64,000 nucleotides of DNA from a virus (IMGVR_UViG_3300021255_001602:1-64000), one strand, 5' to 3'; positions 14,045 to 64,000 are shown, counted from the first letter of the stretch. Numbers and translations are program-made. Notes: generated from the sequence alone by a model not told the origin.

Positions 14045-14047
14045 AGC

Positions 14048-17750: not shown

Positions 17751-17947
17751 TGACTTGGTTTGAAACGAAACTGGATGGCTATGATTTTTGTGTGCAGTCT
17801 GGAGATTACGAGGTAAGACGTAAGGGTGAACAGGTCGGATTGTATTATTATGATCATAGAATTGGTTGGTGCAACGATGTTAAAAAGGGAATGTTTAGAG
17901 CATGGGTTCTTGAGTTGTATGGGAGAAAAAGAAATGGATACTGTTGA
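17750..17947 (+). CDS. hypothetical protein (65 aa)
   Basis: ORF track. Confidence 0.3.
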   Translation: MTWFETKLDGYDFCVQSGDYEVRRKGEQVGLYYYDHRIGWCNDVKKGMFRAWVLELYGRKRNGYC

Positions 17948-19745: not shown

Positions 19746-19765
19746 ACAAAGGAGGCCAAAGATGC

Positions 19766-22408
19766 ATGGGTGAATACGGAATAAAAATTAAAAACATCGT
19801 TGTCGGAAGCCTTTTAGAGAAAAATGCTGGTGTCCGTGATCATATTGATATGACGGACGCCATGTTGTGTAATAGTCTTTTTCTTGATTACATGAAGAAA
19901 CATGGGCTTGATATATATAAAGATACATCAACCAGAGACGTAATTGTTCTTGATTTTAAATATGGCACACGTAGCTATGAACAAGAAAAGGCGCATTTAA
20001 AGAAATGCATTAAAGATACAGAGAAGAATGATAAGTTAACTGAAGAAGAAAAAACACAAAAGATACAATATTTTAATGAGTTATTAGTGAGAGCTGAAGA
20101 AAATCAGGACAAGTATGTTAGATATAATCGGGCTGAAGCAAGGGATAAGGTTTATACCGAGGGTGTTGATGTGACTTATCCTGCCGCTCGTAAAAATCAG
20201 GAACCACAGACAATACATTATAAGAGGTTGTTCAGGACACCGGGCAAGGCTAAAAAGGGAACTGTTGATTTTATTAGAGAAGAATTGTATGACATAGCTA
20301 AAGAATATTTATATATGGGGATTGATTTAGATGAATATGAAAATCCTCTTCTGGTTGAAGCTGAAGCATATTCTTCTTTGGCAACTAGTACTATTATTGG
20401 GAAGATTAAGGTTAATCCCTATGATATATTAGTACTTGATGATTATGATTCTTTTTGTTTTAAAGATATTATAAGCATTGAAAAGGGTGATGATGGACAT
20501 GTTCATGCAGTAAAACGTGAAAATGCTAAAATTGGTAATTCAATGTTTGACGGGCAAGGTTTAATTGATCATAACTTTGTTCATGCGCAGTTTCCTAAAA
20601 CGAATGGATTTGTTCTTTTAAGAAATCACTTTTGTAAAATGGCGTGTTTTGACACAGATATTCAGGGTTTTTTTAGAGATTATGCTGCTGATCATGATAT
20701 TGATTATGAGACATGGAAGCTGACAGATATATTTGGTCATGAGCATTTGGTTAAAGACGTAAAAATTATTTGCCATGAATCTGCAATGAAATGGTGCAAA
20801 TTTATAAATGATAGAATTAATTATGATTATTGGTGTCAACGAGTTATTGAAGATAATGATAGTTATTTTGGAATTGTTAAGACGGCGAAAAAATCTAAGT
20901 TGGGTGATGTTCAGAAAATGAGTTATCAGCATGTAAACTGCATGTCTGAGAATATTATGGAAGATGTAATTCAATGTACAAAAGAATATATTAAGGAATT
21001 AAAAACAAATAACGAAGCGTTTCTTGACTATCTAAAAAAGGGACAAAATTTTTCCAATGATTATGAAGTATTAATTGCTTTGGTTAAACACAATCCAGAT
21101 TTTATTAATTCTAGTTATTTCCGAGATCGTAGGAAATTAATTATTAATACATATGCTAAAATGGCGAAAACAGGGCGAATTATTAATGAGGGAGATAATA
21201 TGGTTATTGTTGGGTCTCCTTATGCCGAGTTGTTGTTTGCTGTTGGAGAAGACCCAGAAAGTGACCCAACCTTTGAACAAGAAGAATTGGCTATCCAGTG
21301 TTATAGTGAAAGATTTAAAGATGGAGAATACTTAGCAGAATTTCGTAGCCCATTTAATTCGCAAAATTCATTGGGGTATTTACACAATCATTTAGATTGG
21401 AGGATGAAAAAGTATTTTTATTTGGGTGAGAATTGTATTGCTATTAATATGAGACAAAATGATTTTCAAGACGCTAATAATGGCAGCGATCAGGATTCTG
21501 ACACAATTTTAACGTTAAACCATTTATCGATTGTAGGCCATGCTAAATATTGTCAAACGGCTTTTCCAACTGTGAAGAATAATATTCCAAAAGATACTAC
21601 CCGCTACAAAAATACAGCATTAGATTTATCATATATAGATAATAAATTAATGTCAAGTCAGATGGGTATTGGATTGTCTAGTAACTTGGCACAAATAGCC
21701 CTCTCCTATTCTTATTCATTTCCAGATCAAAAATATAAAGATTATGTTTGTATTCTGGCTGTACTTGCTCAGATATACATAGATTCTAGCAAACGTGCTT
21801 ATGATATTGATTTAAATGAGGAAACGGACAGGATACGCAGAGATTTGAATATTAAACAAAATGGATATCCCATGTTTCTTAAACCTATTCAAAAATATAA
21901 TAATAAACGTCTTGGAATGAGTACGGCTAAAATTAAAGAAGGACGTTATAATCCATCGTTGAATTGTCCTATGAATTATTTGTATAACGCTGATATTAAT
22001 CCCGCTATGACATATGAAAGAGAGATTCCTATGGATTATTTTTTTATTAGGCATGATAGGGACTTACCAGTGAGGCGCAGTAAGAAAATAGAAAAGCTGA
22101 TAGAAAAGTATAGTTTTAAATTGGGACAATATCAACAAAATATAGTAGATGATTCTGATGAAGATATTTTATTATTAAGAAATGATTTTGATGAATTAAT
22201 TAATGACATTAAAGAAATTAGTTTAACAAAGAAATATCAAGGATTAATGTCTTTTTTAATTGATCGTGCTTTTTGTATCACACCTTATTTAAAAAGGAAC
22301 AGAGCATTGGTTGCAAGTAAGATGAATAATAATCGTGCATTATTGCTTAAAGTATTATACACAATATCTCCAGAACAATTTTTAGAATGTTTTAAAGGCT
22401 GTAATTAA
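19766..22408 (+). CDS. large hypothetical protein (880 aa), no recognisable motif
   Basis: uninterrupted ORF with strong RBS AAGGAGG; His/Cys-containing blocks (DGHVHAV, HESAMKWC) but no motif I can assign. Confidence 0.6.
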   Translation: MGEYGIKIKNIVVGSLLEKNAGVRDHIDMTDAMLCNSLFLDYMKKHGLDIYKDTSTRDVIVLDFKYGTRSYEQEKAHLKKCIKDTEKNDKLTEEEKTQKIQYFNELLVRAEENQDKYVRYNRAEARDKVYTEGVDVTYPAARKNQEPQTIHYKRLFRTPGKAKKGTVDFIREELYDIAKEYLYMGIDLDEYENPLLVEAEAYSSLATSTIIGKIKVNPYDILVLDDYDSFCFKDIISIEKGDDGHVHAVKRENAKIGNSMFDGQGLIDHNFVHAQFPKTNGFVLLRNHFCKMACFDTDIQGFFRDYAADHDIDYETWKLTDIFGHEHLVKDVKIICHESAMKWCKFINDRINYDYWCQRVIEDNDSYFGIVKTAKKSKLGDVQKMSYQHVNCMSENIMEDVIQCTKEYIKELKTNNEAFLDYLKKGQNFSNDYEVLIALVKHNPDFINSSYFRDRRKLIINTYAKMAKTGRIINEGDNMVIVGSPYAELLFAVGEDPESDPTFEQEELAIQCYSERFKDGEYLAEFRSPFNSQNSLGYLHNHLDWRMKKYFYLGENCIAINMRQNDFQDANNGSDQDSDTILTLNHLSIVGHAKYCQTAFPTVKNNIPKDTTRYKNTALDLSYIDNKLMSSQMGIGLSSNLAQIALSYSYSFPDQKYKDYVCILAVLAQIYIDSSKRAYDIDLNEETDRIRRDLNIKQNGYPMFLKPIQKYNNKRLGMSTAKIKEGRYNPSLNCPMNYLYNADINPAMTYEREIPMDYFFIRHDRDLPVRRSKKIEKLIEKYSFKLGQYQQNIVDDSDEDILLLRNDFDELINDIKEISLTKKYQGLMSFLIDRAFCITPYLKRNRALVASKMNNNRALLLKVLYTISPEQFLECFKGCN

Positions 22409-31000: not shown

Positions 31001-31077
31001 CGCGGGATGGAGAAGTTCGGTTTAACTCACTAGCTTCATGGGCTAGAGATTCGGGGGTTCAAATCCCCCTCCCGTTA
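31001..31077 (+). tRNA. tRNA with anticodon CAT (Met / possibly Ile2-lysidine type)
   Basis: cloverleaf: acceptor CGCGGGA/TCCCGTT (pos1 mismatch), anticodon stem CTAGC/GCTAG with loop TTCATGG, T-arm GGGGG-TTCAAAT-CCCCC; boundaries +/-2 nt. Confidence 0.55.
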
Positions 31078-43777: not shown

Positions 43778-44400
43778 ATAGAATTTCCATGGGTTATGCC
43801 GAGAAATTTGATGGCACACCTCTTTATGTCCTGACTCAGCTTTCTGAGGCTTCTATTGAGATTTCTGCAGAGTCTCGTGACGCTGTTGATAAGGACGGTA
43901 CGCTGATTAAGCGTTTCTGGAACGCAAAAACTGGTGAGTTTACTGCGACTAACGCAATGCTCAACCTGAACGTTATGGCAGCTCAGTCTGGTAACGATGC
44001 TAATATCGCTACTGCTGATAATGTTATTGTCATGCCTAAGATTATCACTGTTAAGAGTGGTACTACTGTCGATCTGGAGGGCTTTGTTACTGGTAATCGT
44101 ATCAGTGTGAATGCTCTGGGTACCAATGGTGCTATGGGTAAGGCTTATACTCAGGGTACTGCTGCTTCTGCGACTGAGTTTGGTCTGAATGGTACTAAAC
44201 TGACTCCTCCTACAGATACAACTGAGGCTCAGTATGTTGTTAAATATGATCGTCAGGTTACTGAGGGTGTTGATATTCTTAACTCTGCTGACAAGTTCCC
44301 GGCTACTGTTCGTCTGACTCTCAAGGGTCTCTGTGTCGATCCCTGTGAGGCCGATGTGCTGCGCGCTTTGTCGCATATTTATAATGATTTTTTCGTTTAT
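43778..44400 (+). CDS. major tail protein, exon 2 (ORF track 43789..44409)
   Basis: KFDGTPLYVLTQLSEASIEISAESRDAVDKDG... typical of Firmicute siphovirus major tail proteins; no SD upstream of its ATG; exon boundaries approximate. Confidence 0.6.
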
Positions 44401-44700
44401 AATATGTAAATGACGATTATAGAGTAATCTATATACACTTGCACATCGTTAAAATAAAATAAGTGTCAATAACAGCTATATCAGGGGAAGCCCAGAGATG
44501 GGTAATCCTGAGGAAAGACTTGGTAATATTATCAAGAATCCGCAACGACTACAGGATAAGACAACCAATTGTTTTATCGAAGCTGTTGCCCACAAGAATG
44601 ATGTGGGATGATATATAGTCTGAACTCACGCAATAATCTAAATAAGAAACGTGAGAGATAGGTAGAAATTCCTATCCGCTATAGTAATATAGTCAGTACC
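44401..44700 (+). mobile_element. candidate group I intron 2 in major tail protein gene (no ORF)
   Basis: P-like CAGGGGAAGCCCAGAG 44482, Q-like GGGTAATCCTG 44500, S-like GATATATAGTCTG ~44612; same P/Q pattern as intron 1. Confidence 0.5.
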
Positions 44701-44894
44701 CAATAAGCACTGGGGAAAGTAACAGTTTGGTTTACATCGTGCTTCCGTCCTTCCAGCCTAGCCCTGAGACCACTATCGCTCTGAATAGTGATAATCCTAC
44801 TCTGGACTTCAACGGCAGCTTGCAGGTTGACTACTGCTCGACTGATAAGGCACTGTATCATGTTTACTATGCAACAGCTGATGCTGAGCAGTAA
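44701..44894 (+). CDS. major tail protein, exon 3 (C-terminal ...LVYIVLPSFQPSPETTIALNSDNPTLDFNGSLQVDYCSTDKALYHVYYATADAEQ*)
   Basis: stop-free, protein-like frame (open from 44688) ending TAA 44892-44894, not preceded by any start codon/RBS; start approximate. Confidence 0.5.
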
Positions 44895-45022: not shown

Positions 45023-46264
45023 ATGCGAAAATGTGATTTGACAAAGGTTCCTAAAATTCTGAAAAATGGTAAAGAAGCCTGTGATTGGAGAAAAACTATT
45101 GGATTAAGTATACCATTTGAGTATGATGGTTTAAAGGATAGTTTTAAAATTGTGGGCTTCGAATCAAGAGATAAAGTATATGTGATATATAGAAATAAAA
45201 AATATATGCTTTATGGGAAATATATAAAAAAAGGCAGAATTGCCAAAATATTTGGGCAAACAATAGAATGGAAATATGCTGAAGGTGATATAATTAAAGA
45301 TCATATTGGTTCACATGATAGAAATATATTAATAACCGCAAGAAAATACGTTGAAATAAATAATAATCCAAATAATAGAAATCATAAATATTATCAATAC
45401 AGATGTTTAATATGTGGATATGATTGCGCTATGGATGATTTCTGGGTTAATGAGGCAGATTTAAGAGACGGTAAAGGATGCGGTTGTTGTGCGGGGACTA
45501 AGGTTATTGTAGGTGTAAATGATATATCTACTACCATACCTTGGGCTGTTCCTTATATTGATGATATTAATTATGTTCATACACATACTAAGACCAGTAA
45601 TAAAAAAACTGATATGACATGTCCTATTTGTGGTTTTAAAAAGAAAATGTGTGTGAGCAATTTATATTTTCAATCTTTTGCATGTCCTAAGTGTTCTGAT
45701 GGGTTTAGTTATCCAGAAAAATTTTTTCTTAATATTTTAGAGCAAGTAGGGGTAAAATATAAGACTCAATTAAATAAATCTGATTTTGAATGGTGTGAAA
45801 AATATCGGTATGATTTTTATTTGCCAGAATACCATTGTATTGTAGAAACGAATGGCGCACAACATTATGAAGACGGATGGCATAAAATAGAACTGCAAAG
45901 AAAGATTGATAAACAAAAGAAAGAATTAGCTTTGCAAAATGGAATTAAACACTATATTGAGTTAGATTGTAGTCGTTCTGAAAAAGATTATATCATACAA
46001 TCTTTAATTAAATCTAATATACCATTTGATTATTCTAATGTTGATTTTAATAAAGCCGACTTAGCAGCACAAAAAAATGTGTTAATTGCAACTTGTAAAT
46101 TATATAAGAATAATCCTAATATGACTCTTGCTAATATTGCAGATGAATACCATGTTCATATTAGTACTGTGGTGCGATATTTACAGAAAGGGAGAGAATT
46201 AGGATTATGTGATTATCGAGAATCTTTAAAAGGTAATCATAAGAAACGAAACAAAGGAGCGTAA
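45023..46264 (+). CDS. free-standing homing-endonuclease-like protein (zinc ribbons plus PD-(D/E)XK-like core plus C-terminal NUMOD1-like HTH)
   Basis: CLICG/CPICG/CPKC zinc knuckles; YDFYLPEYHCIVETNGAQHY (D...E.T/K nuclease-like); C-terminal TLANIADEYHVHISTVVRYLQKGRELG HTH; located between MTP and TMP where HEGs often sit. Confidence 0.5.
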   Translation: MRKCDLTKVPKILKNGKEACDWRKTIGLSIPFEYDGLKDSFKIVGFESRDKVYVIYRNKKYMLYGKYIKKGRIAKIFGQTIEWKYAEGDIIKDHIGSHDRNILITARKYVEINNNPNNRNHKYYQYRCLICGYDCAMDDFWVNEADLRDGKGCGCCAGTKVIVGVNDISTTIPWAVPYIDDINYVHTHTKTSNKKTDMTCPICGFKKKMCVSNLYFQSFACPKCSDGFSYPEKFFLNILEQVGVKYKTQLNKSDFEWCEKYRYDFYLPEYHCIVETNGAQHYEDGWHKIELQRKIDKQKKELALQNGIKHYIELDCSRSEKDYIIQSLIKSNIPFDYSNVDFNKADLAAQKNVLIATCKLYKNNPNMTLANIADEYHVHISTVVRYLQKGRELGLCDYRESLKGNHKKRNKGA

Positions 46265-47063: not shown

Positions 47064-47312
47064 ATGTTTGGACATGATCTTATTACGCCTAATCTTCATC
47101 CACGACCTTATTATCCATCTGAAGTAGTACGGATAGTTAATTCGAAGCAATTTAAATTATATATAGCGAATGGGATTTATCCTATTGATGTGTATACAGG
47201 TATGGACAGGAAGACAGGCAAGACGATTTTAGTAATGATTTTCTTAAAAGAGGAAACTAAAGAAGCCTATGAGTTATGGTGCAAGTATGAACTTGAGGAG
47301 GATACGATATGA
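47064..47312 (+). CDS. hypothetical protein (82 aa)
   Basis: ORF track, ATGA overlap downstream. Confidence 0.4.
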   Translation: MFGHDLITPNLHPRPYYPSEVVRIVNSKQFKLYIANGIYPIDVYTGMDRKTGKTILVMIFLKEETKEAYELWCKYELEEDTI

Positions 47313-47779
47313 CTACTCTTCTATCTCTTGACACCAGTACTACATCTACGGGATGGGCTATTTTCAAAGATGGTGAATATCAAGAATCTGGTGTCATTGA
47401 TGATTTTAAAAAAGTAAAGAATGGCTATGAACGTCTTAAATTAATGACAAAAGAGTTATTAGATAGTATTGGACAATTAAAGCCCGATATTATTGTTATT
47501 GAAAAAGATGTTGTGTTTGGAAATATGAAAGTTATAGATATGCTCATGAAAATTATTGGAGCGGTCTATGGTTTTTGTTTATTTAATGGAATTACATATT
47601 ATGAATTTGCGCCCAGTGAATGGCGTAAGTATGTGAAGCTTCAGGCATTTGGTAGAAAACGAGATGAGTTTAAGAAAGCTTCAATTAAATATATTAAGGA
47701 TAATCTTAATATGGATGTAAATGATGACGAAGCAGATGCTATATGTATTGGGCTGGCATACTGCAAAAAGTTTGGATAA
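47309..47779 (+). CDS. RuvC-like Holliday junction resolvase
   Basis: LLSLDTSTTSTGWAIF (cf. RuvC ILGIDPGSRVTGYGV), catalytic acidic residues (VIEKD..., ...DDEADA) in RuvC-like spacing; 156 aa. Confidence 0.7.
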   Translation: MTTLLSLDTSTTSTGWAIFKDGEYQESGVIDDFKKVKNGYERLKLMTKELLDSIGQLKPDIIVIEKDVVFGNMKVIDMLMKIIGAVYGFCLFNGITYYEFAPSEWRKYVKLQAFGRKRDEFKKASIKYIKDNLNMDVNDDEADAICIGLAYCKKFG

Positions 47780-48904: not shown

Positions 48905-51900
48905 ATGGCTCAAGGTACATTTGAAGGTGGTACAGTTACAATAAGAGGGGATGCTTCCCAATTAAAGAACGAATTGTTAGAAGTTAGTGAACTGTTAACC
49001 ACGTTAGAAAAAAGTAAGGTAAAATTAAAACCCGAAATTGATGTAAAAGATATAAAAAATCAAATCAACAAATTAGGACAGTATATGGAGGGTAGATTTG
49101 GAGCACTTGATTTTAGTAAAGTATATTCTGGTTTAATGTCGAGTGCTCAAAAGGATGGTAATAGATTTGCTAGTCAATTAAGCAGTACTATACGCAGCTT
49201 GAATTTATTAGATCAAGCTGTTAAACCAGAAGATGTAAGTAAACTAGCAGCGGCTTCAGCTGATGAAATTTCTAATCTTGTTGATGGAATAAATGGATTA
49301 TCACCTAAAACCAAACCAACTAGTAATTTAATTACTAAGAGATTACAAGCCCTTTATGATAAATATCCTAATGGTATCGAAGGATTAGGTGGTTCTGGTA
49401 AAGGTGGCGGTTTTGGTGCGTCTGAAGAAGCATTAAATAGAATTGGAGACACTTTAGATCGAATAGACGCTAATGTCCAAGGTATTACTGAATCTATTCG
49501 TAATGGTACTGGTACGTTAAAGGTAGCATCTCAAGACGCAGAAAAATATGCTGGAAGCATGGAAAAAGCTGAGACAGCGGCTAATAAGATGCAGACAGCA
49601 GTTGATAAGATGAAGCAAAAACAACAAAGTGTCAAAAATGCTTTAGAAGGTGAAAAAGTTGAAGCAGATTGGGATTGGACTTTACAGTATCTTAATGGGA
49701 CAAAAACGCCTACCTCGAAAAAGATTTCTAAACCTAAAACTCAAGTATCTGAAGCCCAACCTGAAATAAAAGTTTCTGCTCCTGATGTAACGCCGATAAA
49801 AAATGTGGTTAAAGCAGAAGAAGAGTTACATAATGCTGTGGAAGGTGCTACTGATGCTTTAAGAGAGCAGAATGACGCATTGCAAAACAACAGTATTTCC
49901 GTTCCTTCAACGGATAAAAAAGGATTAAGTTTTACAAAGGCAGTTGAACAAATTGGGGCACCAAAAGAAATTGCCAAATATTTAAAAGACCCGAAAAGTA
50001 TTAAGACCATTTTAAAAGGATTAGATGATGATAGTCTTAAAGGATTAGATATAGATCAGATACTTACTAATTTTTCAAATGATGATGATGCAAAATTAAA
50101 TAAAGCGTTAAATGATAAAATGAGAAGAGCTGCAATGTATGTTCAACAGATTGCGGCGATGTTCCCTGATGATTGGGAGGATATGTTTTCTGGTTTTTCA
50201 ATTTTTTCGCAAGGAGTAATGGGCAACTGGGCAGATGACATTGCTGCATTTTTTGAACAAACCAATGATTTAGTGGATGAAGCAACTGGTGATATTGATG
50301 ATAGTCGAGTAGAAGGATTGAAAATTACTTATGATAAATTAGTCGAAATAATGCAAGAATGGGCTGATTTATATAATACTGTTCGTCCAATGCTTGACAA
50401 AGGTATGTCTAAACAAGATATCGACACACGCTTAGATTTAATGAAGGGGTTTACTGAAGAAGATGTAAAAAGCAGTGAGTTGGGTACTTCTGGAACTGTT
50501 GATTTATATTCTCAAAAAATTGAGCAAACTCAACAACGACTTGATCAAATGGCTGAATTAAAATCATTATTAGATCAAGAAGAAGCGGCAGGACGAGTGC
50601 TGTCTGATCGGGAACTTATCTTTTTAAATAATTATCAAGAGTATGTAAATAAAGGCAACGCTATAGTTCAAAACGCAACAACAAGAAAAACCGCTTTAGA
50701 AAATCCTGAAGCTGTGCGTGAAGTGGCTCGTCAAAAAGTAGAACAAAGACAGCAAGAAAGTCAAATTAATTTTGAACAAGAAACATTAGAGGCAGCTAAG
50801 GCACAAGAAGAATTAGCAAAATCAGTAAGAGAGGCTAATAATGCCTTAAAGGAACAGAATGATGTTGGTAAAGATAATATCATGTATCACATGGGCAACT
50901 TGTCTGCTTCGAAAACTAAAGAAATTAGTCACCCATTTGGAGATGAATTTAAAGCGTGGTTTGAAGGGATTTATGATTCTGGAAGAGGTTGGGGTGATGG
51001 AACTGGTTTATATATGACCAGAAATAGAGATGAATACGCTCCCGAAATCGACCAGAAATCTTTAGAGAATTTTTATGCTATTGATACTTCAGGATTAAAT
51101 CTTTATGAAGCACACACAGAAGAAGCCGCTCAAGATTTTTACAATTTTATTCATCATATTGAACAATTATGTTTGCAAATTGGTACAGGAACAGAGAAAT
51201 TTGATGATAATTTAAAAGATATTGATTCAGAAAGTTTGTATACAGACTTTCAACGGGTATTTCCTAATATTCAGTTGTCATTTGAGCAATTTGATGATTT
51301 TATTACTAATATGTCTACAATGCTTGCTGATTCTGGACTTGATGAGAATGGTATTGCTGATGCTCAAAAATTAAATGCTTTTAAACAGAAATTCGGCAGC
51401 GATGATATAAAAACACGATTCCTTAAAATGCTTGGATATCAAGGTACAGATTTAAGTGGCACATCTTATGGTGGACTGCAATCAGGAAATGTGGTATTTG
51501 ACCCATTGGATAAAAATCGTATTATTGCTCAAGGTAAAAATATTGAGCAAGTTGCCCAAGAAGCTGTACAAAAAACAAAACAAGCATCAGAAGAAGCAAA
51601 GAAAAACGCAGATGATGCTAAAAAGGCGGCTGAAGAAGGTAAGAAAGCTGTAGAGGAAACTAAAGATAACAAAGAAAAAGCTGATGCCGTAATTCCTACT
51701 TCTGAATCTGCCCCTGATCTACAATCTACTATAGACAATGCTAATCAAGCAAATACCGAAACTGAAAAGCAGGTAATGTATGTAGAGCGTTCTTTCGATA
51801 CACTTAATAATTATTTAAGACAATATACTCAGGAATTAGCACAAAAGAAGCAAGAACGAGATGCGTTATTACAACAAATTCAATCTCTTCAAGATGGTAC

Positions 51901-54900
51901 TTTTGATACTTCTCAAAGGATGCCGGGTGCTACTACAACTTTTGATAGTGCAATAGAAGACAGTGGGCAATCAAGAGAAGACTTTTTGAAAGGAAAATTA
52001 GAATACGATACTCAACAATTAGAAACTATTGAACAACAGATCATAAAGAAACAGGCTCAAGTATTGCGTGTTAATAAAGAACATGCTGAAGTCGAGGAAT
52101 TAGTAAAGCAAGGATATGATATACAAGAAAAACAAAAGCCAGTCAAAAAAAATAAAAAAGGTGTTATTATTACTCAAGTAAAAGATGAAATTAAAGCTGA
52201 AGAAGATGATATCAAAGAAGCAGAAAAGATAATTGAAGAAGAAAGACAAGAAGCTGAAAGATTAGCGGCAGAAAAAAGAGCTAAAGACGAAGTTTTGCAA
52301 CAAATGATAAACGATGCCGGAGGGTCAACCAAAGGTCATAGTAAAAACAGTGAATTTAATTTTGGTGCTAAACTTGAGGGTGGTGAAACTGCAAGACAAA
52401 AACAACAAAGAGGTGGAGCGACTATTAGGGGTGGTAATCTTCCGAACTATAGCACACCGGGAACAAGAGGTGGTAATGCTAATACCGGTGTTTCAGGTGG
52501 AGCGCAACAAGTTAAAGTAGTTTATCAAGTAGAAACTACTTTGGAAGACGTTAAAGATACTAATAAACAATTAAAAGCTTTAAAAAAGACAAACACTGAA
52601 TTAACAACTTCAGCTAATCAAGCAGCTGACGCAATCCAGAAGGAAGCTGAAGCACTTAGCAAGATGGCTGAGACATTAACCACTATTGGAGAAATTGGCA
52701 GTAAAGTTGCGACTGTTAATCAAGAAATTAAAGATGTTACTACTAAAACTGTTAATCAGACCTTAACTCCTGAGCAATCCCAAATACCGACTAAACCCTT
52801 AACTAGGCCATCAGTAAAACCTAAAGCTACAGCAGTTAAAACATCCGATGAAATAAAAAAAACAAAAGAACAAATTGAACAATTACAAAAAGCAAAAGAC
52901 GATGCTGAACAGAACTTAAAGAGTATTACATTAGACGATTCCACATTTGATGTTGGCGAAAAATATCAAAAACGCAATGCTTATTCTCAAGTTAAACAAT
53001 GGGCAGATGATTTAAAAAAAGCGCAAGAAGAAGTTAATAGCTTAGGTAAAGATGCTGATCCACAAAAGGCACAAGAAGTATTAGACAATTACGATAAAAT
53101 GCGGATTGGTTTTTCTAAGGCATTTAAAATAGCAGACAATCTTGATGTTGGTTCTTCTAAAAATTTTGCAAAGCCAATGGAAGAATTTAAAGAACTGTAT
53201 CAGAATTTAGGAGAACCGAGTAGCGATTTTAAACAAGTCGAAGAACGATTCGCTCAGGCGTCCACTCAAGCTGCGGAACGGGCAAAAGCACAATTTGAAC
53301 AACAAAAGCAACAAGCTGAAGTAATAATGGCTAGATTGCAAGCACGTTTGGAAGAATTGCAATCTAAAGAAAAAACTACTGCCCCTGCTCCAGAAAAGCC
53401 GAAGGTAACTACTGAGCCGAAACCTTCTAAACCAGTTGAAAATAAACCTGATTTAGGCGGTAATCAGACAGGTAATGGTGTTCAAACTGAAGGTGATAAA
53501 GCCGTTGATGCAGCTGCTAAAATGCAAGAATTGGCTGATGCTAAAAAACAAGTAACTGAAGCTAATCAAAATTTAGCTCAGAGTGCTCAAAATACAACAA
53601 GTGCTCTTAATGGTGAAGGTGGGGCTGGTGCTAATGCGAGTAAAGCTTTTCAAGATCAGATTGATGCTCAGAAAAAGGCATTAGAAGAACAGAAAAAAAT
53701 AATAGAAGATCAGCAAAAAGCCATTGATGATTTACAAAAGAAACAAGAAGAGGCTACAAATAAAAAGATTGAAAATTTACAGAAAGAAAATGATGCTTTT
53801 ACTGCTCAACAACAACAAGATTTACAAAGATACAAGGATGCTGAATTACAGACCCAAATGATGCTTGCTCTTCAAAAACAAGCGGCAGAACAAGAGGCTA
53901 AAGTTCGTGAAGAGCAAGAAGCTAAAGCCGCACAAAAAGCTAAAGAGCAAGCAGAAAAGGCTGCTCAAAAAGCGCAGACCAAAGCTGATGATAAAGAATT
54001 AGCACAAGCATACGGAAATTATGGTAAAGATTTTAATGCTGTTCTTAATGCGAAATCAATTCAGGAATTTGATACGGCTGTCGCTCATTTAACAGAAACA
54101 GAGCGTATTTTCTGGGATGCAAGATTAAAGAATATGGGTGATAATTATACCCCGAATTCTAATATGTATGCTCAAAACGATTTACCAGCGGATTATAAAA
54201 AATCTACCGAAGCACAAACTAAAGGTTTAAAACAGAGGCAAATGCAAATTGCCGCATTTACCGCTTCATTAATTGCTGAAGCAGAAAAACAGCAAGCAGC
54301 CTTTGAAAAAATGGATACGGCTTATAAAACTAATACACAAAATCCTGCAAAGGGACATCTTGATTTTATTACTAGCACAAAAGTAGATGATAAGCAAGCC
54401 CGGTCTTATATGTCCGCTGTAGACGGTGTTACAGAATCTTTACAGAAATTGCAGTCTGTTGCAGAGTCAATGAAAAATGGCACCTTTGATTTTGGTGATA
54501 CTAATGCTTTAAGAGAATTGCTTGAGTTGCGCCAAACTTTAGATTCTCAAATGAGTACGCTAAAAGTCGAAGATAAAGGTTATAAGACTGCTCAATCCGA
54601 ATTAGAGGCAAATGCGAACAAGACTGCTGAAGGTTTAAAAAAATCACTTTCTGGAGTCGCGGATCAAATTGAAGGTATTCAAAAAAAGAGCAAAAAATTA
54701 ATTAATCCCGATCAAGAATACCAAGGACAGTTACAAGCGTCAGAGCAATTACTACAAGTAATCAAAGAACTTATTGCGGATATTAATAATAATCCTCTTC
54801 AGTTTATGGATGAAGGTAATGTTAAAGGGTTTAGATTATTAGTTGATGCAATGAAGGAAGATGTTGGTGATTTTCAAGATAGATTTGATTCTCAACAAGG

Positions 54901-56314
54901 TATTCAAGGACGTATCAACACTTATTTTACTAGTTATAAAGGTGCCTATACAAGCTTCTTTAGAGAAATAAAAGATTCCTTTAAGTCTCAGGCATTAGGC
55001 GAATTGCAGAATGAAATTGATCGTACATTTCAGACATTTGAAGATAGTATCACAAATCTTAATCGTGCTACTGGATTAAATCAAGGTGATTTTCTTAATA
55101 AAAATCTTAACACCAATGGTGGCAAAGCTACTGCTGGTCAGATTGAACAGCAACAAAAAATCAGAAATGCTATTGCTGAAAGTTATCGTGGATTAATTAC
55201 AGATATTTCTGATGAACTTACTAAAGTTCAAGACAGAATGGGTAACGTTTTAGGCGAAGGATTTTTAAGTCAGGATTACTTTAAGAATTTTGGTGAAAAA
55301 TTCACTGCTGGATTGGGTGATGCAAGTGAGTTTAAAGAATTTCAAAATAATGCACAAGGTGCTGTTGATTCATTAAATGAATTGCAAAAAATTCAAGAAC
55401 GCATGGCTAATGGCAGTCTTGATTTGACTCAACTAGCACCTGATAAATTAAAAGATCAGATTCAAGAAATTGTTAAATTATTTGCTGATCTTAATAAAAA
55501 TTATGCTGAAGTAGTTGAAAAGTCTAAGCAGTTTACTTTTGCTGATGTGGGGGATATTGAAAGACAAAGGGCGGGTATTACTCAGTTTATGAAGAGTAAT
55601 CCGGGTATCAGTGCTGATGCTAAAGCACAATTACAAGGATACTTTGATCAATTACAACAAGGAATAAGTCAAGCAGATTTTACAAAATTATCAGATGGAT
55701 GGAAACAAGTTGCGGATGCTGAACAAGCCGCTGGTAGGACTGGTGCTACATTTATGTCTGAACTCCAGACTCGTTTCAAATCCTTAGGCGCTTATCTCCT
55801 GTCCTTTGTTTCATTCTACAGAGTAATCGGTGTTTTCAAAGATGGTATTAATATTATCCATGAACTTGATGACGCTTTGACGGAAATGCAAAAAGTTTCA
55901 GATGAAAGTCTGAGTAGTTTAAGAGAATATCAAAAGAGTACATTTGATACAGCAAATCAGATCGGTACGACTGCGGCTCAGTTACAGACAAGTACTGCTG
56001 ATTGGATGAGGCTTGGTGAAGATTTACAAACAGCATCTCAATCTGCACAAACCGCAAACGTACTGTTTAATGTTTCTGAATTCGATAATATTAATGACGC
56101 AACAACTGCATTAGTTGCTATGAGTGCTGCGTATGCTGATGCGGAAGAAGGTATCGATAAGATGGACATCGTAGATAGATTGAATCTTATTGGTAATAAT
56201 TATGCAATAGCAACTGATGAATTGGCAACTGCTCTTCAGGATGGTGCAGCTGCATTACAAACAGCAGGGAATGATCTTGATGAAGCTATTGCTTTGACAA
56301 CAGCAGGTGAGATT
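48905..56314 (+). CDS. tail tape measure protein, exon 1 (~2470 aa; long coiled coils, Pro/Thr/Lys-rich linkers, conserved TMP core begins at its end)
   Basis: giant K/E/Q-rich coiled-coil ORF; C-terminal ...AMSAAYADAEEGIDKMDIVDRLNLIGNNYAIATDELATALQDGAAALQTAGNDLDEAIALTTAGEI resembles TP901-family TMP core; reading frame then hits a stop inside intron-like sequence. Confidence 0.6.
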
Positions 56315-56947
56315 AAATTGCCTGAATGCGTGGCGACACGTATATAGAACACATCTAATTGCTGGAAATCCTATTAGGATAATTAGCAGCGAAGCCATAT
56401 TGACATATGTTAATTAAAACGTATAATATATATGGAACGTTCAACGACTATTCCCGTGTCGGGGTTAGGACTAGAGAATACATATCCTAATCAATAGAAG
56501 TACGGCTCAATCGCAAATGGAGTGGGTGAGAATCCCTTAAATGGAAATGGTGTGCTCTCTTTTATTAAAGAGATGAAGATATAGTCTGATCCTACGAGTA
56601 ATCGTAGAAACAATATGTATTAATTAAATAAGCATATTAACAGTTATATCTTGCGAATATAACTGAACGTAAATGAATTTAATCACACAAGACGCCTCTA
56701 AAACGGGTAAACATTTGCCCTTAGATAACTATATCGGTTAAAAGCTGGGGACAGTTAAGACCGAGGTAACTCATAATAAAATGAGGCACCGTAGAGACTG
56801 CGGGGTATTATAGGTAACTATAATGCTGAAGTTATCCGTTATTTTAATAACGTAATATACAGTCCGATCTCACGATATAATCTAATTAATGAAACGTGAG
56901 ACATAGCCGGAAATGACTATGCGCCATATTTATATGGTCAGTAAGCG
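56315..56947 (+). mobile_element. candidate group I intron (TMP intron 1, ORF-less, ~630 nt)
   Basis: R-like GTTCAACGACTATTCCCGTG ~56446, 49-nt block AGTACGGCTCAATCGCAAATGGAGTGGGTGAGAATCCCTTAAATGGAAA 56499-56547, S element AAGATATAGTCTG ~56576; in-frame rejoining at U 56314 / G 56947 gives ...TTAGEI|KAESNRMKGVRTIALRL. Confidence 0.55.
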
Positions 56948-57280
56948 AAAGCTGAAAGTAACAGAATGAAAGGTGTTCGTACAATCGCCCTTCGTTTAAC
57001 AGGTACTAAAGAAGCGGCAGAAGAACTTGAAGAAATGGGTGAAGATACCTCTGACATGATAGTATCTCAATCCAAAATGCGTGAACTGATTATGAATGCT
57101 ACAAAGGTAGCTTCAAATAATTACAAAGGATTTGATATACAAGACGAGTTAGGTCGCTACAAATCAACTTATGAGATAATGTTGGGTCTCTCCCAAATCT
57201 GGGACGAAATTCGTCAAGCCGACCTTAAAACAGGCGATAACCGTCAGAACTTATTGCTTGAATCAATTGCAGGTAAATTT
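56948..57280 (+). CDS. tail tape measure protein, exon 2 (ORF-track 56966..57340 region; ...GVRTIALRLTGT...LLLESIAGKF)
   Basis: TMP-core-like sequence continues in frame with exon 1; no RBS; ends in intron. Confidence 0.55.
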
Positions 57281-58864
57281 TTGCCTGAAATATATGGAAA
57301 CATATATTTTAGAATGCGTTTAAATGCGTTGATTACCTAAAGCCTTATGCCACAATATAGGAGAAATCACTATATGAAGGATTAACAAGTTAAGGATGAT
57401 ACAATGGTTAATTCGCAGCGAAGCGCCTAAGTATGTTTTAATTAAATATATATGGTGAACGTTCAGAGACTATCCCCGTGTAGGGGTCTTAATAGACCAA
57501 TAGGAGTACGGCTCAATCGCAAATGGAGTGGGTGAGAATCCCTTAAATGGAAACAGCGCATATCCTAACAGATCAAGCTGAGGATAAAGAAATAGTCCGT
57601 GCTTGTGTGAAAGCATAAGAATAATGAATATTAATAGACAAGGAGCAATTATGGCAACAAGAATTTCAAAAGAATTAATTCAAATAATGTATGAAAAATA
57701 TGATAGTGGAATGACTATTGTTGATATATCTAAAGAAACAGGTGTAGGACAAGATACTGTTCGTAAATATATACGAAAAAGTGGACGCAAGCGTAGACCG
57801 TCAATAGAAAAACGGATCGGAGAAGAAGGAATTAAACAGATATGTAATTTATATACTCAAGATGCAATGGATGAGATACGTAGGCTATATCCTGATCTTA
57901 CTAAACAGCAAATATATAGCATTGCCAGTCGGCATCAAGTTAAAAATACTAATTATTTTTGGAGTCAAGAAGAGGTAGAATTTCTAGTTAATAATTTTGG
58001 CATTCTGTCTTATGATGAAATAGCGGCTCATTTTAATAATAGACATAACGTAAAAGCTATATCTACTAAAGCTATAAAACTTGGATTAACGACCTCTCAA
58101 CATTGGACTAAAGAAGAAGAGGATATTATAATTAAATATTACCCTCATATTCCATTAAACGAGGTGTTACAAATGCTTCCTCGCAGAAGTGCAAATGGTT
58201 TAAAGATACACGCTCTAAAAATGGGTGTTAAAGGGCTACAATATCTTTCTGAAAAATATTCAGATGAACAAAAACAATTTATTCTCGATAACTATGTGCT
58301 AATGTCTGACGAAGAAATTGCAAAAGTACTTGGTAAAACACCAGTTGGAATAAAAGAACAAAAACGGAAACTTGGCATTTATCAATTTAATAAAGAATAT
58401 CAAGGGTATGAAAGTTTGAGTAAATTACTTAGAGGTCAAATATCGACTTGGAAAAGATTAAGTTGTGAGCAGTGTGGTTATCAATGTGTTTTAACTGGGT
58501 CTAAAAACTTTGAAATACATCATTTATATAGTTTCAATAAGATATTGCAAGAAGCATTTGAAAGATGTAATGAACAAGGACTATTAAAATCTTATAATAT
58601 AGAAGATTACACCAAAGAAGAGTTGGATGTTATTATTCAACTTTTTTTAGATATACACGAAACCTATCCTTTAGGCGTATGTGTTGAAAAAGACTTACAT
58701 AAATTATTTCATGATATTTATGGTACAGGTGGCAATGTGCCAGAACAATGGGATGATTTTGTAAACAGATATAAAAAAGGTGAGTTTAATAATGTAAAAG
58801 CATCTTAGTTAATATTCATTATTAGGTAGATTTGCGACCTACCTTAACATTTCAAAAAAATAGG
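57281..58864 (+). mobile_element. candidate group I intron (TMP intron 2, ~1.58 kb) carrying an HNH homing endonuclease
   Basis: R element GTTCAGAGACTATCCCCGTG ~57468, identical 49-nt block 57505-57553, S element AAGAAATAGTCCG ~57590, then HEG ORF; exon 3 frame open from 58826. Confidence 0.55.
57651..58808 (+). CDS. intron-encoded HNH homing endonuclease with multiple N-terminal HTH repeats
   Basis: C-terminal CEQCGYQCVLTGSKNFEIHHLYSFNKILQE...H = C-x2-C...HH...N...H HNH motif; N-terminal repeated helix-turn-helix-like segments; ATG 57651 with AAGGAG RBS. Confidence 0.7.
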   Translation: MATRISKELIQIMYEKYDSGMTIVDISKETGVGQDTVRKYIRKSGRKRRPSIEKRIGEEGIKQICNLYTQDAMDEIRRLYPDLTKQQIYSIASRHQVKNTNYFWSQEEVEFLVNNFGILSYDEIAAHFNNRHNVKAISTKAIKLGLTTSQHWTKEEEDIIIKYYPHIPLNEVLQMLPRRSANGLKIHALKMGVKGLQYLSEKYSDEQKQFILDNYVLMSDEEIAKVLGKTPVGIKEQKRKLGIYQFNKEYQGYESLSKLLRGQISTWKRLSCEQCGYQCVLTGSKNFEIHHLYSFNKILQEAFERCNEQGLLKSYNIEDYTKEELDVIIQLFLDIHETYPLGVCVEKDLHKLFHDIYGTGGNVPEQWDDFVNRYKKGEFNNVKAS

Positions 58865-61800
58865 GCGTCCATAGCCAGCAGTATCCTGCAAAATCCAGAT
58901 GTTCTTCAATCCGTTTATGAAGACTCTTCCACTAAATCCGCAGGTTCTGCACTGGAAGAAAATCAGAAATATTTAGATAGTATCTCAGGTCACCTTGCAA
59001 AACTCCAAAATGCTTGGCAAGAACTTTGGGCAAATGCTGCTAATCGTGATGTCATCAACATGTTCATTGACTTAGGCACCACAATCCTTAACTTAATCAA
59101 CGATGTTGGTGGACTTCAGTCTGCTTTTACACTCCTTTGGGGTGGTGCAATTGTTAAAGGATTAGCAACAGCCGATAGCTGGTTAGTTAAATTTGTCCGT
59201 GGGTTAGATGCGGCTAAGGCATCAAGCCAAGGTTTGGGGAATACATTAAGTAATATATTTACTAATTTAGCTGGAAAAACTGATTCTAATAAAGAAACAC
59301 GTTGGAAAGGGCTTGCTCAGATTCAAAAGGATCGTGAAAACGCAAGTCAACAGGCTACTCAAGCTGTAGATAATGTATCTGAAGCAGCGTCTGATATAAC
59401 CGCAAAAGCGGCTAAAGACGCCAAGACACAGTCTACAATTGCTTCCGCACAGGCAACTGGACAAGAAGTTGCAGCTCAAGGGCAATTAGTATCTTCAGAT
59501 ACAGAAGTCACGGGAGCTGAAGGTGCTGAAGCTACGGCAAAAGCAAATAGTACAGCTGAAAGCCAACAAGCGGCTCAAGCATATGTTCAAGAAGCCGAAT
59601 CTGCAAAATTAGCAGCTGATGCTATTAGAGATAAGGCAAATGCTGAAGTCGAATCTTATATTAAAGACGAAGCAAAAGGTCTTAGTCGCACAAAGAAGAA
59701 AGCACTTAAAGGTCAGCGTGGTGATCTTGTAAATGCTGATATCGAATTCTTAACAGATATCAGACCCGAAGCAGACATGGATTGGACAATGATGTATGCT
59801 GAAGGTTTTGAAGATGTTGCTGAAGCGGCTAGTAGTGTTGATGATGTTGTAGTTCAAGAAATTGTCCCGGCTGTTAATGGAGCGACACAACAAATCGGCC
59901 TTATGTCAGTTATGGCTGGTCAAGTTGGAGAAGGATTTGCGGGCATAGGCGCTAGTTTAGCTGGACTTGCTGTTAATCCTATGACGTGGCTTATTGGTAT
60001 TCCAATACTTATTAATGGAATAACTATGGGTATTTCCATGATAAAGAAGCATCAACAAGATATAATTGATCAAGCTCATGAAGCCACAACTTCTTGGGAA
60101 GAAACCAAAACTTCTCTCTCTGATTATGGAACACAATTAACAGAATTACGCACACAATTAAATCAACCAAATCTTTCTGATGCAGAACAATTAAATATTA
60201 AAGAACAAATATTTGATTTACAAAAGAAAATTACAGCTGAATATGGTAAGGCCGCTGAAGGAATAGATTTTGTAAATGGAAATTTAGACACACAATTACA
60301 AAAACTAAGAGAGATTAGTGTTGAAGAAGCTAGGTCTAATTTACGCAATAACAAAGGTTGGGAAAATGCTAGTAATAGGATGAATCAGACAGGTACATAT
60401 AGAATGCTTGTAGGTAATAATCCTAATGCAATCAAAGATGTAATTGGACAATTTGGAGATACTTTTAAATTAGACGAGCCATATAATGGTGGAAATTATT
60501 CTATCGAATTATCAGCGGAATTAAATGTTTATGATGCTGAAAAGAAACTGGAAGAATTATATGATAAATTATATGATTTAAAATCTTCAATGACAGACGA
60601 AGATTGGGCTAAGTCTGGATTAGCCACGAGTTTCCTTTCAGTATCGGCTCAATTACAAGAAATACAAAAAATAACAGATCAAAATAAAGCAGATGCTAAA
60701 GCATATCTAGAAAATAAGCTTATAGCAGAGCAAGATACTACAGGAAAAGATTTATATTATAATTATCAAAAAGCTACAGATGACTATAATAAAGCATTGC
60801 TTATTGGCAATCAAGAGGAAATTGCCAAGACAGAAACCGCATGGCAACGATTGAGTGATCAAAAAGATAAATATTTAAGTAAACATTCCGACTATACGCC
60901 TTTATTTAATGATATAGATGAATCATTAAACGAAACAGCGATTCGTTCTCGTGAATTATATAAGAAAATGACTTCTGAAGAGGGACGGACAGCAATAGAA
61001 GCAACTTTTGGTACTATTAAAGAGAATAAAAAAGTTGGAAAAGACACACAAAAAGAATTGATATCTGCCGCTAAAAACTATTTAAAAGAAAGAAAGAAAA
61101 TTGCTTCTGGTAAAGATGTTGGAGTTACTGAAAATATAGAAACATTACAAAAACTTGAAACGGCTGCACAAAAAGCTGACATTCCGATTAAATCTGTTGT
61201 AGATATGTTAAATAATACTAATTCTATTTCAGGTTTAAAAGACATGCTTGCAAATACGGCTGTTACAGCTGAAGATGTTAGCAATGCACTCATGGGTGCG
61301 AACGATGAGGCTAGTCGAGCAATAGCAGGATTGGCTCAAGATTTTGGTCTTGATTTACATTCTCCTAGAGAAGAGATTGATGCTTTTACAAATTATCTTG
61401 CTGAAATGGGTCATGTTGTGACTTCAACATCAAATACATCTCAAGATTCATTGAATGCTTTCTTTACAGACGTGTCTGGTAAAATTGATAAGCTTAATAC
61501 CTTGACATCCGTTGTTCAAAAAGGACTATCACAAACTGGATTAAGTTTTACAAAGCTTACAGATGAAAAAGGAAACCCGTTACAGAGTGAAGTATCTCAA
61601 ATTATAGACGCTTATAAAAATCTAGAGGGTTATGATCTTGGTTCTTTATTTGAAGAAACGGCGAATGGTATTCAATTAAACATGGACGCTTATCGGGCAT
61701 TGTCTCAGGAAGAAGAAGCCGAAACTAAGCGTCAATATATGCTTGAAAGGGCACGATTAGAAAACGATTTGGCGCATGCGGCTCCTGAAGATCAGAAAGC

Positions 61801-64000
61801 TATTCAACAACAAATCGTTGAACTTGATATGTTGTCTTCTGCTTATGATGGTGCTACTTCTGCGCTTCAAAAATATCTGAATCAACAAAATGCTGCTGAT
61901 TATGGTGATACCTATGCTATGTTGAGGGATACGACATTTAAACGTGGTGATGAATTGTTAAATCAGCATATGATTGGAACTGAAGAGTTCAGAAGTATCG
62001 CTCAATTATTTTCTAATAAATCTTTGGCGACTGCGTCCGTTGATGATGTTGTAGAAGCTTATAAAACTGGTACACAAAATATAAAGAAATATTTTACTGA
62101 AGACGCTGTTGACGGTGTGTATCAGTTTGCCCTTGATATAGAAGGATTAGGAGATAAATTCGGAAATGTCACTCGCTCTATTAATGAACAGGGTGAAGAG
62201 GTTTTTGATTTTTCGTATACAGATGAGCAGGTAAAGAATCTTGCCGATCATCTTCAGGTTTCGGTTGATGTAGTCGAATCGCTGTTTGACCAAATGAGAG
62301 CAACTGGAGCATCTATTTACAGATGGAGAGATGGTGGTTTTAATACTTTCGATGAATTAAATGCAAATATTAATGCCTCTAGAGACAGCCTCAAAGAATT
62401 AGCAAAAGAATCAAATGATCCGAATCTAGTGAACTTAGATATTGATGCCAATGATCTTAATACTGTTGATAAGTTAAAAGAACAAATATCCAGTATGGAA
62501 GATTTAAAAGCAAACTTAGATGTTAATTCTGATGCTTACAAAGAAGCAGAACGTTATATTGATGAGTTAAAAGCTAAGCTTAAAGAATATGAACAAGCTG
62601 CTGAAGATGCTAATAAGCCATTAACTGTAGAAGATTATTCTTCTGCAAATGATATGCTTGATCAAATGAAACAATCATTCGCAGAAATTGCCAAATATAA
62701 AAACGAGGATGGGACATATAAATTTAATATTGAAGAGGGTGGCAGCACTACCCTAACTGAATTAGCTAATCAGATTGCTTTATTGCCACCTGAGATTCAA
62801 GAGGAAATGAAATTTGAGGCTACCACAGACCCTGATGAAATACTTGCCCAAATGCAACAGAAATTTAATGAGCAATATGTTGATGTTCCGGTAGGTGCAG
62901 ATACAGCCCAAGCACAACAAGATGTTGCTCAAATGACAGACACTATGGCTGGCGCAGATGTTCCAATTGATTTATATGCTAATACTGGGCAAATTCAGCA
63001 ACAAGTTGACGAAGTAGCCAACTCATCTGGTACTGTAGATATTGATGCTCAAGTTACAGGCGATAAACCTCTCATTTTGCAATGGATTGATGGAATAAAA
63101 AGTACTCTTGTTATGGAGGCAGATGCTTCAGAAATAGATGCGGCTCGGCAACAGGCCGAACAACCATTAGAAGTTCAAGTGGGCGCTAATACGTCTCAAG
63201 CTCAAAATGATATTAATAATTTGGGAACAGGGGAAAACTCGCCCACAATTACACCACAGGTTGATTCTTCTCAAGCGAAAAGTGATTTAAACAACATTAC
63301 CAATAATGGTGAAACCACGATGATGCATGTTGATGCAGACACATCACAAGCTGACTCAAAGGTTGATGCTGTAATATCTAAAGTCACTTCCCCCATCACG
63401 GCAATCGTAGGCATGGAAGTTGAAGCGTCTGAGGTTGAAACTGCTCGTGCTAACGCTGAAAAGCCTATTGAAACTCCCGTAACGTTTAAAGCAACTAATG
63501 ATATGCAACAAGTAGCTAATGGTGCTGGTGCTCAAGGTGTTACAGCTACTAAGACAGAAAATGTTATTAAGAATGAGCAGACAAATGTAACCGTTAATGC
63601 AAACACTGGACAGTTATCTACTGCTCAGGGTGATATTGACAGATTTAAAGCTAATGATGGCGCATCTGTTAATATGTCTGTTGGCGTATCTGGTGTCGAT
63701 AGCGTTACCCAAGCTTCTGATAAGGTAGACGCTTTAGCGGCTAAAAATGGCAAAAAGGTTAACATTACTATTGGTGGTAATACGGCGGCGTTCAATAAAA
63801 CAATTACCAACGCAACTACTCAATTAAATACCTTAAATAAGAAAACGACTAATCCTGCTATCAAAGCTGATAACAGTAAATTAAAATCTGCTGTAAGCGA
63901 GGCTAAAAGTAAACTTGATACCATTAAAAGTAAAAGTATTACAATTAGTGCTCATAGTAGCGGTTTTGGTTCAATTCTTTCTGAATATAGACAACTAAAA
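58865..64000 (+). CDS. tail tape measure protein, exon 3 (partial; >1700 aa, runs off window end without stop)
   Basis: stop-free frame from 58826 to 64000; begins ...SILQNPDVLQSVYEDSSTKSAGSALEENQKYLDSISGHLAKLQNAWQELW (TMP-core-like), has hydrophobic segment (LMSVMAGQVGEGFAGIGASLAGLAVNPMTWLIGIPILINGITMGI) typical of TMPs; not in ORF track because no stop in window. Confidence 0.6.

Follow-up and report, generated by a model that had tools for sequence, protein, structure and literature searches.

We analyzed a 64,000-nucleotide (nt) stretch of viral DNA (IMGVR_UViG_3300021255_001602:1-64000, here called the window), and found that its part from position 48905 to the end very probably represents one giant TP901-type tape-measure gene, composed of four exons and three group I introns, which we named A, B, and C (Table 1). 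What was observed are the folds of the introns, the limits of the exons, the colinear arrangement of uninterrupted homologues, and the presence or absence of the introns among relatives. An earlier note on this DNA had proposed a giant tape-measure gene split by group I introns, and both the joined core and colinear homologues encoded by single open reading frames (ORFs) agree with this. The note had counted two introns; three are present, since the first of its two gaps holds A and B.

The gene would start at ATG 48905, which is preceded by an AGGAGG ribosome-binding site 8 nt upstream. The corresponding ORF spans 48905-56347, and its frame (frame 2) is open again at 56945-57337 and 58826-64000, in line with the frame continuity across the gaps claimed before. 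Using tblastn with uninterrupted homologues, we placed the end of exon 1 exactly at 56308 (...ALTTAG) instead of the previously given ~56314. In the window, the joined frame comprises 4,296 codons. Since exon 4 leaves the window, it was followed in contig L003 (ENA ERZ12302814; 69 kb), which has 5 mismatches to the window in 16,350 nt. Four of them (56495, 56498, 56507, and 56521) lie within 27 nt in the periphery of intron A, between P7 and the 3' strand of P3, and the fifth is at 56143. In L003 (gene 11182-20463), the frame past 64000, which the earlier note had asked about, is open for a further 4,113 nt and then stops at window-equivalent position 68113, giving exon 4 a length of 3,085 codons. 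The joined product would thus have 2,468 + 11 + 102 + 3,085 = 5,666 amino acids (aa). The earlier figure of >4,300 aa was correct as to the very large size and too low as a number. The predicted ligated junctions are ACAGCAGGT to AATTTAATC, AAAACGGGT to AAAGGTGTT, and ATTGCAGGT to AAAAATAGG, and the peptides spanning them in a four-exon product would be ...AIALTTAGNLITQDASK, TGKGVR, and ...QNLLLESIAGK. Gene callers annotate separate ORFs of 2,480, 124, 385, and 3,093 aa in this region and report no tape measure.

The tape-measure core is incomplete in every single exon. When the pieces were searched singly, the last 170 aa of exon 1 matched positions 4-163 of the 349 positions of the TIGR01760 profile, the middle and last pieces did not match TIGR01760, and no exon gave a Pfam match. 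The joined core matched TIGR01760 in a single stretch (74.3 bits at a cut-off of 28.8; profile positions 4-326) and also PF10145 (43.9 bits at a cut-off of 33.2), the latter match being obtained with the joined core only. A core complete within one exon, which the earlier note had named as refuting its reading, was thus not found. The TIGR01760 score was 61.8 bits if the 33-nt micro-exon (exon 2) was left out and 62.5 bits with the junction of the earlier note.

Furthermore, none of the 14 aligned homologues had a gap at any of the three junctions, and three giant proteins encoded by single ORFs (P0338, P0250, and P0252) crossed all of them without gaps. Single ORFs colinear with the product encode proteins of 6,026 aa (P0263), 5,974 aa (P0252), 5,349 aa (P0285), 5,055 aa (P0262), 4,932 aa (P0316), 4,604 aa (P0338), and 4,110 aa (P0250). 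In each of these colinear giants, the order of blocks is the same: an N-terminal domain, the tape-measure core, and C-terminal blocks at ~4,260-4,420 and 4,870-5,300. We regard these single ORFs as the strongest evidence that the four exons belong together.

An Rfam scan of the whole window at the gathering threshold detected two group I introns and one tRNA, and nothing else. The two introns were A (RF00028, 79.4 bits, E 1.6e-18, 56299-56608, full model 1-253) and C (70.2 bits, E 8.9e-16, 57264-57619), both above the gathering threshold of 50 bits and located where the earlier note had placed its introns. The R and S elements that it reported are present in both, as the core sequences GUUCA.(C/A)GACUA and AAGA.AUAGUC. 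In intron A, P1 is formed by 56304-08 (CAGGU) and 56320-24 (GCCUG), with a U56308.G56320 wobble. P10 is formed by the guide 56313-19 (UUAAAUU) and 56676-82 (AAUUUAA; 7 bp), and the last base of the intron is G56675. The guide expects a 3' exon beginning with AAUUUAA, and therefore the micro-exon was recognized at 56676, after ...AAAUG. Its sequence is identical to the corresponding uninterrupted stretch of the relative L001 (NLITQDASKTGKGIRTIALRLTG) and colinear with all homologues. Moreover, contig L051 carries intron A at the identical site (91% identity), ending with AAAUG/AAU (here and below, a slash marks a splice site) and followed by an uninterrupted exon. Skipping of the micro-exon would preserve the frame at the cost of 11 aa. 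T56308 and T57274, the bases of the U.G wobbles of introns A and C, each complete a codon.

The earlier note had described the first gap as 633 nt without an ORF. Indeed, neither A nor B contains one; the single intron it assumed is resolved into two, with the micro-exon between them. As an alternative, we considered a 3' splice site after G56947 (ALTTAG/KAESNRM) and rejected it, because the product would be 4 aa shorter than every homologue and poorly conserved at this place. KAESNRM, previously read as the start of the next exon, is intron read-through, and the exon starts at 56969 with KGVRTIALRL. Likewise, the KF of the ESIAGKF formerly assigned to an exon is intronic, since exon 3 stops at 57274.

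Intron B is of a different, compact family. The end of the micro-exon (...ACGGGU) pairs with the intron sequence GCCC, forming P1 of 56705-08 (GGGU) and 56717-20 with a U56708.G56717 wobble. The last base is G56968, and the frame resumes after ...GAAUG at 56969. Folding by eye revealed P1, P3 (GAUAACU with AGUUAUC), P4, P5, P6, P7 (GACUG with CAGUC, one A being bulged), P8, P9, and a P9.1 capped by GAAA; a P7.1 hairpin separates P7 from the 3' strand of P3. Dozens of relatives were found by a 14-mer scan of viral contigs; because such a scan gives many chance matches, an nhmmer filter was applied before use. In an alignment of 12 family members, 82.7% of the cells were paired, versus 66.6% after shuffling (0 of 500 shuffles reached the observed value) and 31-38% in slid controls, over which the structure is favored because it was drawn from the window sequence. 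P3, P4, and P7 were 100% paired with compensatory changes, and double changes were present in 57 of 71 pairs. These data argue that intron B is a group I intron that Rfam under-scores. Weak RF00028 matches of B and of its paralogue in the tube gene (38.9 bits) point the same way. L040 carries intron B at the identical site, and L001 has two homologues at other positions of this gene, of which one contains a 429-aa ORF in P6.

Intron C corresponds in length to the second gap of the earlier note (~1.58 kb with an endonuclease ORF). Its P1 is formed by 57270-74 and 57283-87 with a U57274.G57283 wobble, and is contiguous with a perfect P10 of 6 bp between 57277-82 (AUUUUU) and 58856-61 (AAAAAU). 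The sequence AGKNR is invariant in all 14 aligned homologues; in the window, ESIAG is encoded at 57260-74 and KNRASIASSILQN from 58856 on. AGKNR and P10 therefore place the 3' splice site between 58855 and 58856, in a run of seven A, so that the last base of the intron is A58855 and not the canonical 3'-terminal G (omega G). The end ...CAA/AAAAA was also found in L003, L004, L126, L127, L128, L130, and L132. In this A-ending clade, at least four distinct introns are represented on contigs from several samples, with endonucleases 73-100% identical (73%, 82%, and 91% identity to that of the window in L126, L127, and L128, respectively). At this site, a more distant homologue of the intron (L005, L129, L133, and L134) ends with ...AAAAUUUUG/AA (in L005 and L129, ...UUUUG/AA), thus with G, and unrelated introns at this site (L038 and L125) also have a terminal G. 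An alteration of the guanosine-binding pocket was considered for the A-ending introns and rejected, because P7 (AGAGACUA with UAGUCC) is near the Rfam consensus type, contains the usual G-C pair, and gives no sign of adaptation. Between the window and L126, P8 shows a compensatory change from UCCU with AGGA to UCCA with UGGA, which suggests that the ribozyme of this clade is still under selection.

A hairpin with the loop UUGCGA or UUACGA is shared by the A- and C-type introns of the window, L001, L005, L126, and L127, and is located 10-14 nt before the 3' splice site (in the window, at 56639-56663 and 58825-58843). Its stems covary (CAGUUAUAU with AUAUAACUG in the window versus CAACUAUAU with AUAUAGUUG in L051), and it is probably a conserved peripheral element. 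In addition, the segment GUACGGCUCAAUCGCAAAUGGAGUGGGUGAGAAUCCCUUAAAUGGAAA is identical between intron A (56492-56551) and intron C (57500-57577). Introns of the jumbo Bacillus phages AR9, PBS1, and Goe21 match it with ~85% identity, as does a stretch of Vibrio phage pVco-5.

The distribution of the introns among relatives is patchy. Intron C is present in L126-L128, L130, and L132 and absent from L001, L002, L040, and L051, with L002 representing an intron-less allele; A and B are distributed in a similarly patchy way. Presence/absence polymorphism at a conserved site among close relatives, the mark of a mobile intron, was thus found. The relatives also have introns elsewhere in the core: four in L001 (LQTAG/N, RLTG/T, YEI/M, and SISG/H), two in L040 (core positions 156 and 181), and three in L051 (170, 250, and 328). 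Further sites, at 72, 131, ~198, and GFDI/Q, came from truncated proteins in databases and from viral contigs. Across close relatives, 10 or more sites lie within ~260 codons, and several of them follow a ...GGT codon, which matches the guides of the introns. These data mark the tape-measure core as an extreme intron hot spot. A and B themselves have no endonuclease gene; in related introns of L001, ORFs of 334 and 429 aa are present. The nearest cultured phages (Enterocloster PMBT24, Brevibacillus Sundance, the SPbeta group, and the Lactococcus 949 group) are 24-31% identical in the core. Among 50,697 phage records, no near nucleotide match was detected except intron-core segments of 60-100 nt in AR9/PBS1-type phages.

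The endonuclease ORF of intron C occupies the loop closed by a 15-bp stem (57620-34 with 58809-23). The first ~250 residues of its product have a helix-turn-helix and Myb-like repeats, and are followed by a nuclease-like C-terminal domain with the invariant residues C279, H290, H291, C344, H350, and H354. Its relatives form a populous family of uncharacterized ~380-aa proteins. The earlier note was right in placing an endonuclease ORF inside the intron; its assignment to the HNH type was not borne out by the profile searches, since no nuclease match was obtained in Pfam or NCBIfam, even with the C-terminal domain alone, and PHROG "HNH" matches were confined to the N-terminal DNA-binding region. 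The fold matches the nicking endonuclease SciA of phage T5 (PDB 9qgx and 9qgv; 14-16% sequence identity). SciA is a small free-standing enzyme, while the intron C protein has ~250 additional aa with the helix-turn-helix and Myb-like repeats. A literature search on the enzyme class of SciA gave nothing usable. The intron C protein would be a site-specific, probably nicking endonuclease. The intron-less site of intron C reads ...GAATCAATTGCAGGTAAAAATAGGGC....

Beyond the core, exon 1 encodes a conserved, globular-looking domain (aa 652-887), for which HMMER found 102 matches in 1.84 billion representatives. Nearly all of them are in proteins of 1,200-6,026 aa, at a distance of 400-1,700 aa from the N-terminus. 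Its motifs include YH.G, G.G.Y, YAID.S.L.LY, and D.I.TRF.K.LGYQG. Searches of Pfam, of PDB sequences, and of PDB profiles gave no match for this domain, a word-indexed homologue search was empty, and a single-sequence AlphaFold2 model was unusable (predicted local distance difference test score of 42). By analogy with the RNA polymerase in the tape measure of P23-45, the domain might be an enzymatic passenger. Near the C-terminus, exon-4 aa 2876-2921 are choline-binding-type repeats (PF19127, E 5.7e-10; L003 19831-19968, corresponding to window-equivalent ~67481-67618, beyond the window). They resemble those of pneumococcal LytA and hint at a Gram-positive host and at a wall-binding role of the tape-measure tip. 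At 0.15 nm per residue, the tail would be ~850 nm (~0.85 μm) long if the whole chain measures.

Together, these findings can be combined into the following model. The region would be a single late structural gene, encoding the TP901-type tape measure of a large uncultured SPbeta-like siphovirus. At each intron, the end of the upstream exon would pair with the internal guide (P1), with a U.G wobble at the cut, and the intron would be removed by the usual two guanosine-initiated transesterifications. A and C are related phage-type introns using one guide (GCCUG, pairing with exon ...GCAGGU) at two different ...GCAGGT sites, and B belongs to a separate compact family with the target ...ACGGGT. 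The endonuclease of intron C would spread the intron to intron-less alleles by homing.

Several points weigh against the model. Splicing of the tape-measure transcript is a prediction from sequence. Against RF00028, intron B scored 19.9 bits (56699-56853; E 0.0064 in a 401-nt search) and thus missed the gathering threshold. No family was recognized for the 2,300 aa before the core and for much of the 3,085-aa last exon, so that most of the chain can only be assumed to be "tape". In L001, an in-frame TAA (~9940-9945, ...EEILQRIL*LEQKVAL...) splits the N-terminal part into ORFs of 1,746 and 676 aa; a sequencing error, a site of read-through, and a pseudogene are each possible. Finally, intron C ends with A, combined with a canonical P7, and its homologue in L005 and L129 ends with G, so that its splicing is not to be taken for granted. 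A terminal G is regarded as a universal rule for group I introns, and a literature search for natural non-G terminal nucleotides gave nothing usable. From mutants of G414 in Tetrahymena, a non-G terminus should cripple exon ligation. Either the exons flanking intron C are ligated with a non-G terminal nucleotide, or their ligation is impaired. That the clade splices accurately with A as the 3'-terminal nucleotide is possible, if doubtful; an unusually strong P10 on the A-run may make it feasible.

If A and B are spliced and C fails to ligate, the products would be a protein of ~2,600 aa with intron read-through and a separate C-terminal part, or the cryptic G58864 would be used, deleting the invariant KNR. 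The shared A58855 in the window and in all A-ending contigs listed above fits this scenario, as does the usual G-C type of the guanosine-binding pair in P7, so that no compensation is visible. However, the terminal A persists in introns whose endonucleases share no more than 73-91% identity, both the exon frame and KNR, which is invariant, are intact straight after the A-run, the compensatory change in P8 indicates selection on the ribozyme, and exon 4 lacks a conserved start codon and ribosome-binding site. G58864 would yield an in-frame junction (ESIAG/ASIASS), but was rejected as a clade-wide solution, because the nearest downstream G residues in L126 are out of frame. We consider a non-ligating intron C unlikely. 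An artifact, that is, a chimeric contig or a homopolymer error, might be suspected, given the metagenomic source and the location of the decisive base in a run of seven A. But the contig from another sample differs at 5 of 16,350 positions only, the Logan contig L004 from a third run is identical to the window over 57524-58948 including the A-run, and diverged relatives have the identical A-run end, making an artifact very improbable.

Independent genes or pseudogene fragments, generated by selfish insertions into a region that is not spliced, would account for the four separate ORFs given by gene callers. This is highly improbable, because neither the 33-nt nor the 306-nt exon has start signals, joining of the exons is needed to complete the conserved domain, homologues encoded by single ORFs are colinear with the product of joining, the ribozyme cores show conservation and covariation, and the same phage was recovered from several samples. 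By analogy with P23-45, the joined protein could also be real and multifunctional, with only a part measuring the tail and the rest exerting other activities. The non-coiled conserved domain at aa 652-887, common to ~100 giant proteins, the conserved C-terminal blocks, the choline-binding repeats, and the P23-45 precedent (PMC10770324) point in this direction, whereas Pfam and PDB searches gave no function for these domains. We judge this rather unlikely; it is compatible with one spliced tape-measure gene, and would change the tail-length prediction only.

Table 1. Features of the proposed tape-measure gene (window coordinates)
Feature	Position	Strand	Description
Exon 1	48905..56308	+	2,468 codons; ends ...AIALTTAG on complete codon GGT
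Conserved domain in exon 1	50858..51565	+	globular-looking; aa 652-887
Intron A	56309..56675	+	367 nt; IA2-like phage-type group I; no ORF
Exon 2 (micro-exon)	56676..56708	+	33 nt, 11 codons; NLITQDASKTG
Intron B	56709..56968	+	260 nt; compact group I of a different family; no ORF
Exon 3	56969..57274	+	102 codons, KGVRTIALRL to LLLESIAG; placed by tblastn with uninterrupted homologues and alignment
Intron C	57275..58855	+	1,581-nt group I; ribozyme core 57275-57619; endonuclease ORF; terminal UUGCGA hairpin
Endonuclease gene (in intron C)	57651..58808	+	385 aa; likely start ATG 57651 after AAGGAG; open frame 57603-58808
Exon 4	58856..64000 (window end)	+	starts KNRASIASSILQN; stop-free frame, leaves the window

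The gene appears to be part of a structural module, in which a large terminase gene (32227) and a gene for a tube-like protein (43789; phrog_2729; the L001 counterpart is YomU_Tube) precede the tape measure. Resolvase and endonuclease genes intervene between the tube-like gene and the tape-measure gene, and two small ORFs just 5' of the latter gave no family match. ORF 45023-46264 (413 aa), located between the tube gene and the RuvC-like resolvase gene (47309-47779), matches the homing- and HNH-endonuclease PHROGs 559 and 9084 and, weakly, DUF4379. The whole segment is absent from L001, and the flanking similarity resumes on both sides; it looks like a free-standing homing-endonuclease insertion. 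A tRNA gene (31001-31077; Rfam, 46 bits) is located just 5' of the terminase region.

The tail-tube-like gene itself is apparently split by a fourth group I intron, a paralogue of intron B, at 44401-44729 (exons 43789-44400 and 44730-44893; nhmmer, 62 bits; RF00028, 38.9 bits at 44388-44632). In the P1 that we propose, UUUAU is paired with GUAAA, the 5' splice site would be after T44400, and the last base would be G44729. Exon 1 of this gene reaches only position 192 of the 252 positions of the phrog_2729 profile, and exon 2 has 54 codons in frame. The intron is also present in L001 (1693-1947).

In kind, tape-measure-gene group I introns, multi-intron phage genes, and giant tape measures are already known. 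In prophages of the Bacillus cereus group, the group I introns TMP-IVS1, IVS2, and IVS3 occupy three tape-measure sites, another one resides in the tail-tube gene, and related introns were retargeted through P1 (Tourasse and Kolsto 2008, PMC2504315). The present case resembles them in its IA-type introns, the alternative sites in a conserved TP901-type core, the retargeting of P1 and guide, the mosaic spread, and the tube-gene intron. However, the B. cereus-group genes encode ~1,200 aa or more and have up to two introns, while here 5,666 aa and three introns are predicted, and only 33 nt separate two of these introns. Here, moreover, there are at least 10 sites across relatives, one intron type below the Rfam threshold, and one without a terminal G. 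In orf142 of Staphylococcus phage Twort, three group I introns and exon skipping are described (Landthaler and Shub 1999, as cited in PMC11878797), and the ribonucleotide reductase gene of phiNIT1, one of the split genes of the Bastillevirinae, has a very small exon between two introns (PMC11878797). Three introns in one gene, a tiny internal exon, and the scope for exon skipping are similar; the host genes differ, and splicing in the tape-measure gene is a prediction here.

Giant size has a counterpart in the Thermus phages P23-45 and P74-26, which have a 5,002-aa tape measure (PMC10770324, PMC10034513), the N-terminus of which is an RNA polymerase in P23-45 (PMC10770324). As in these phages, several thousand residues imply a tail approaching 1 μm, and extra conserved domains are embedded. 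In contrast to them, the product described here would have 5,666 aa, and its relatives reach 6,026 aa. The two were not shown to be related in sequence, and the Thermus gene was not reported to be split by introns. With YomI of the SPbeta group and large siphoviruses of Firmicutes, the similarities are the TP901-type core, a YomU-like tube gene upstream (in L001), and genomes of ~100 kb or more, but the core is only 24-31% identical. What is new is the 5,666-aa scale (in the family, up to 6,026 aa), the intron density with a 33-nt exon, the sub-threshold compact family and, above all, the clade without a terminal G.

These findings suggest that giant split genes are easily missed, because gene callers return four unrelated ORFs and a standard Rfam scan finds two of the three introns. 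They add a family of tape measures of 4,000-6,000 aa, exceeding the 5,002 aa of P23-45, and predict tails near 1 μm in uncultured phages. The spread of introns and the skipping of exons could be studied in a natural setting in the tape-measure core, which combines at least 10 sites with two intron families and with guides retargeted to similar ...GGT sites. In the A-ending clade, nature offers a ribozyme in which the need for a terminal G can be tested directly; if this clade splices accurately with A, it would be a natural exception to the rule.

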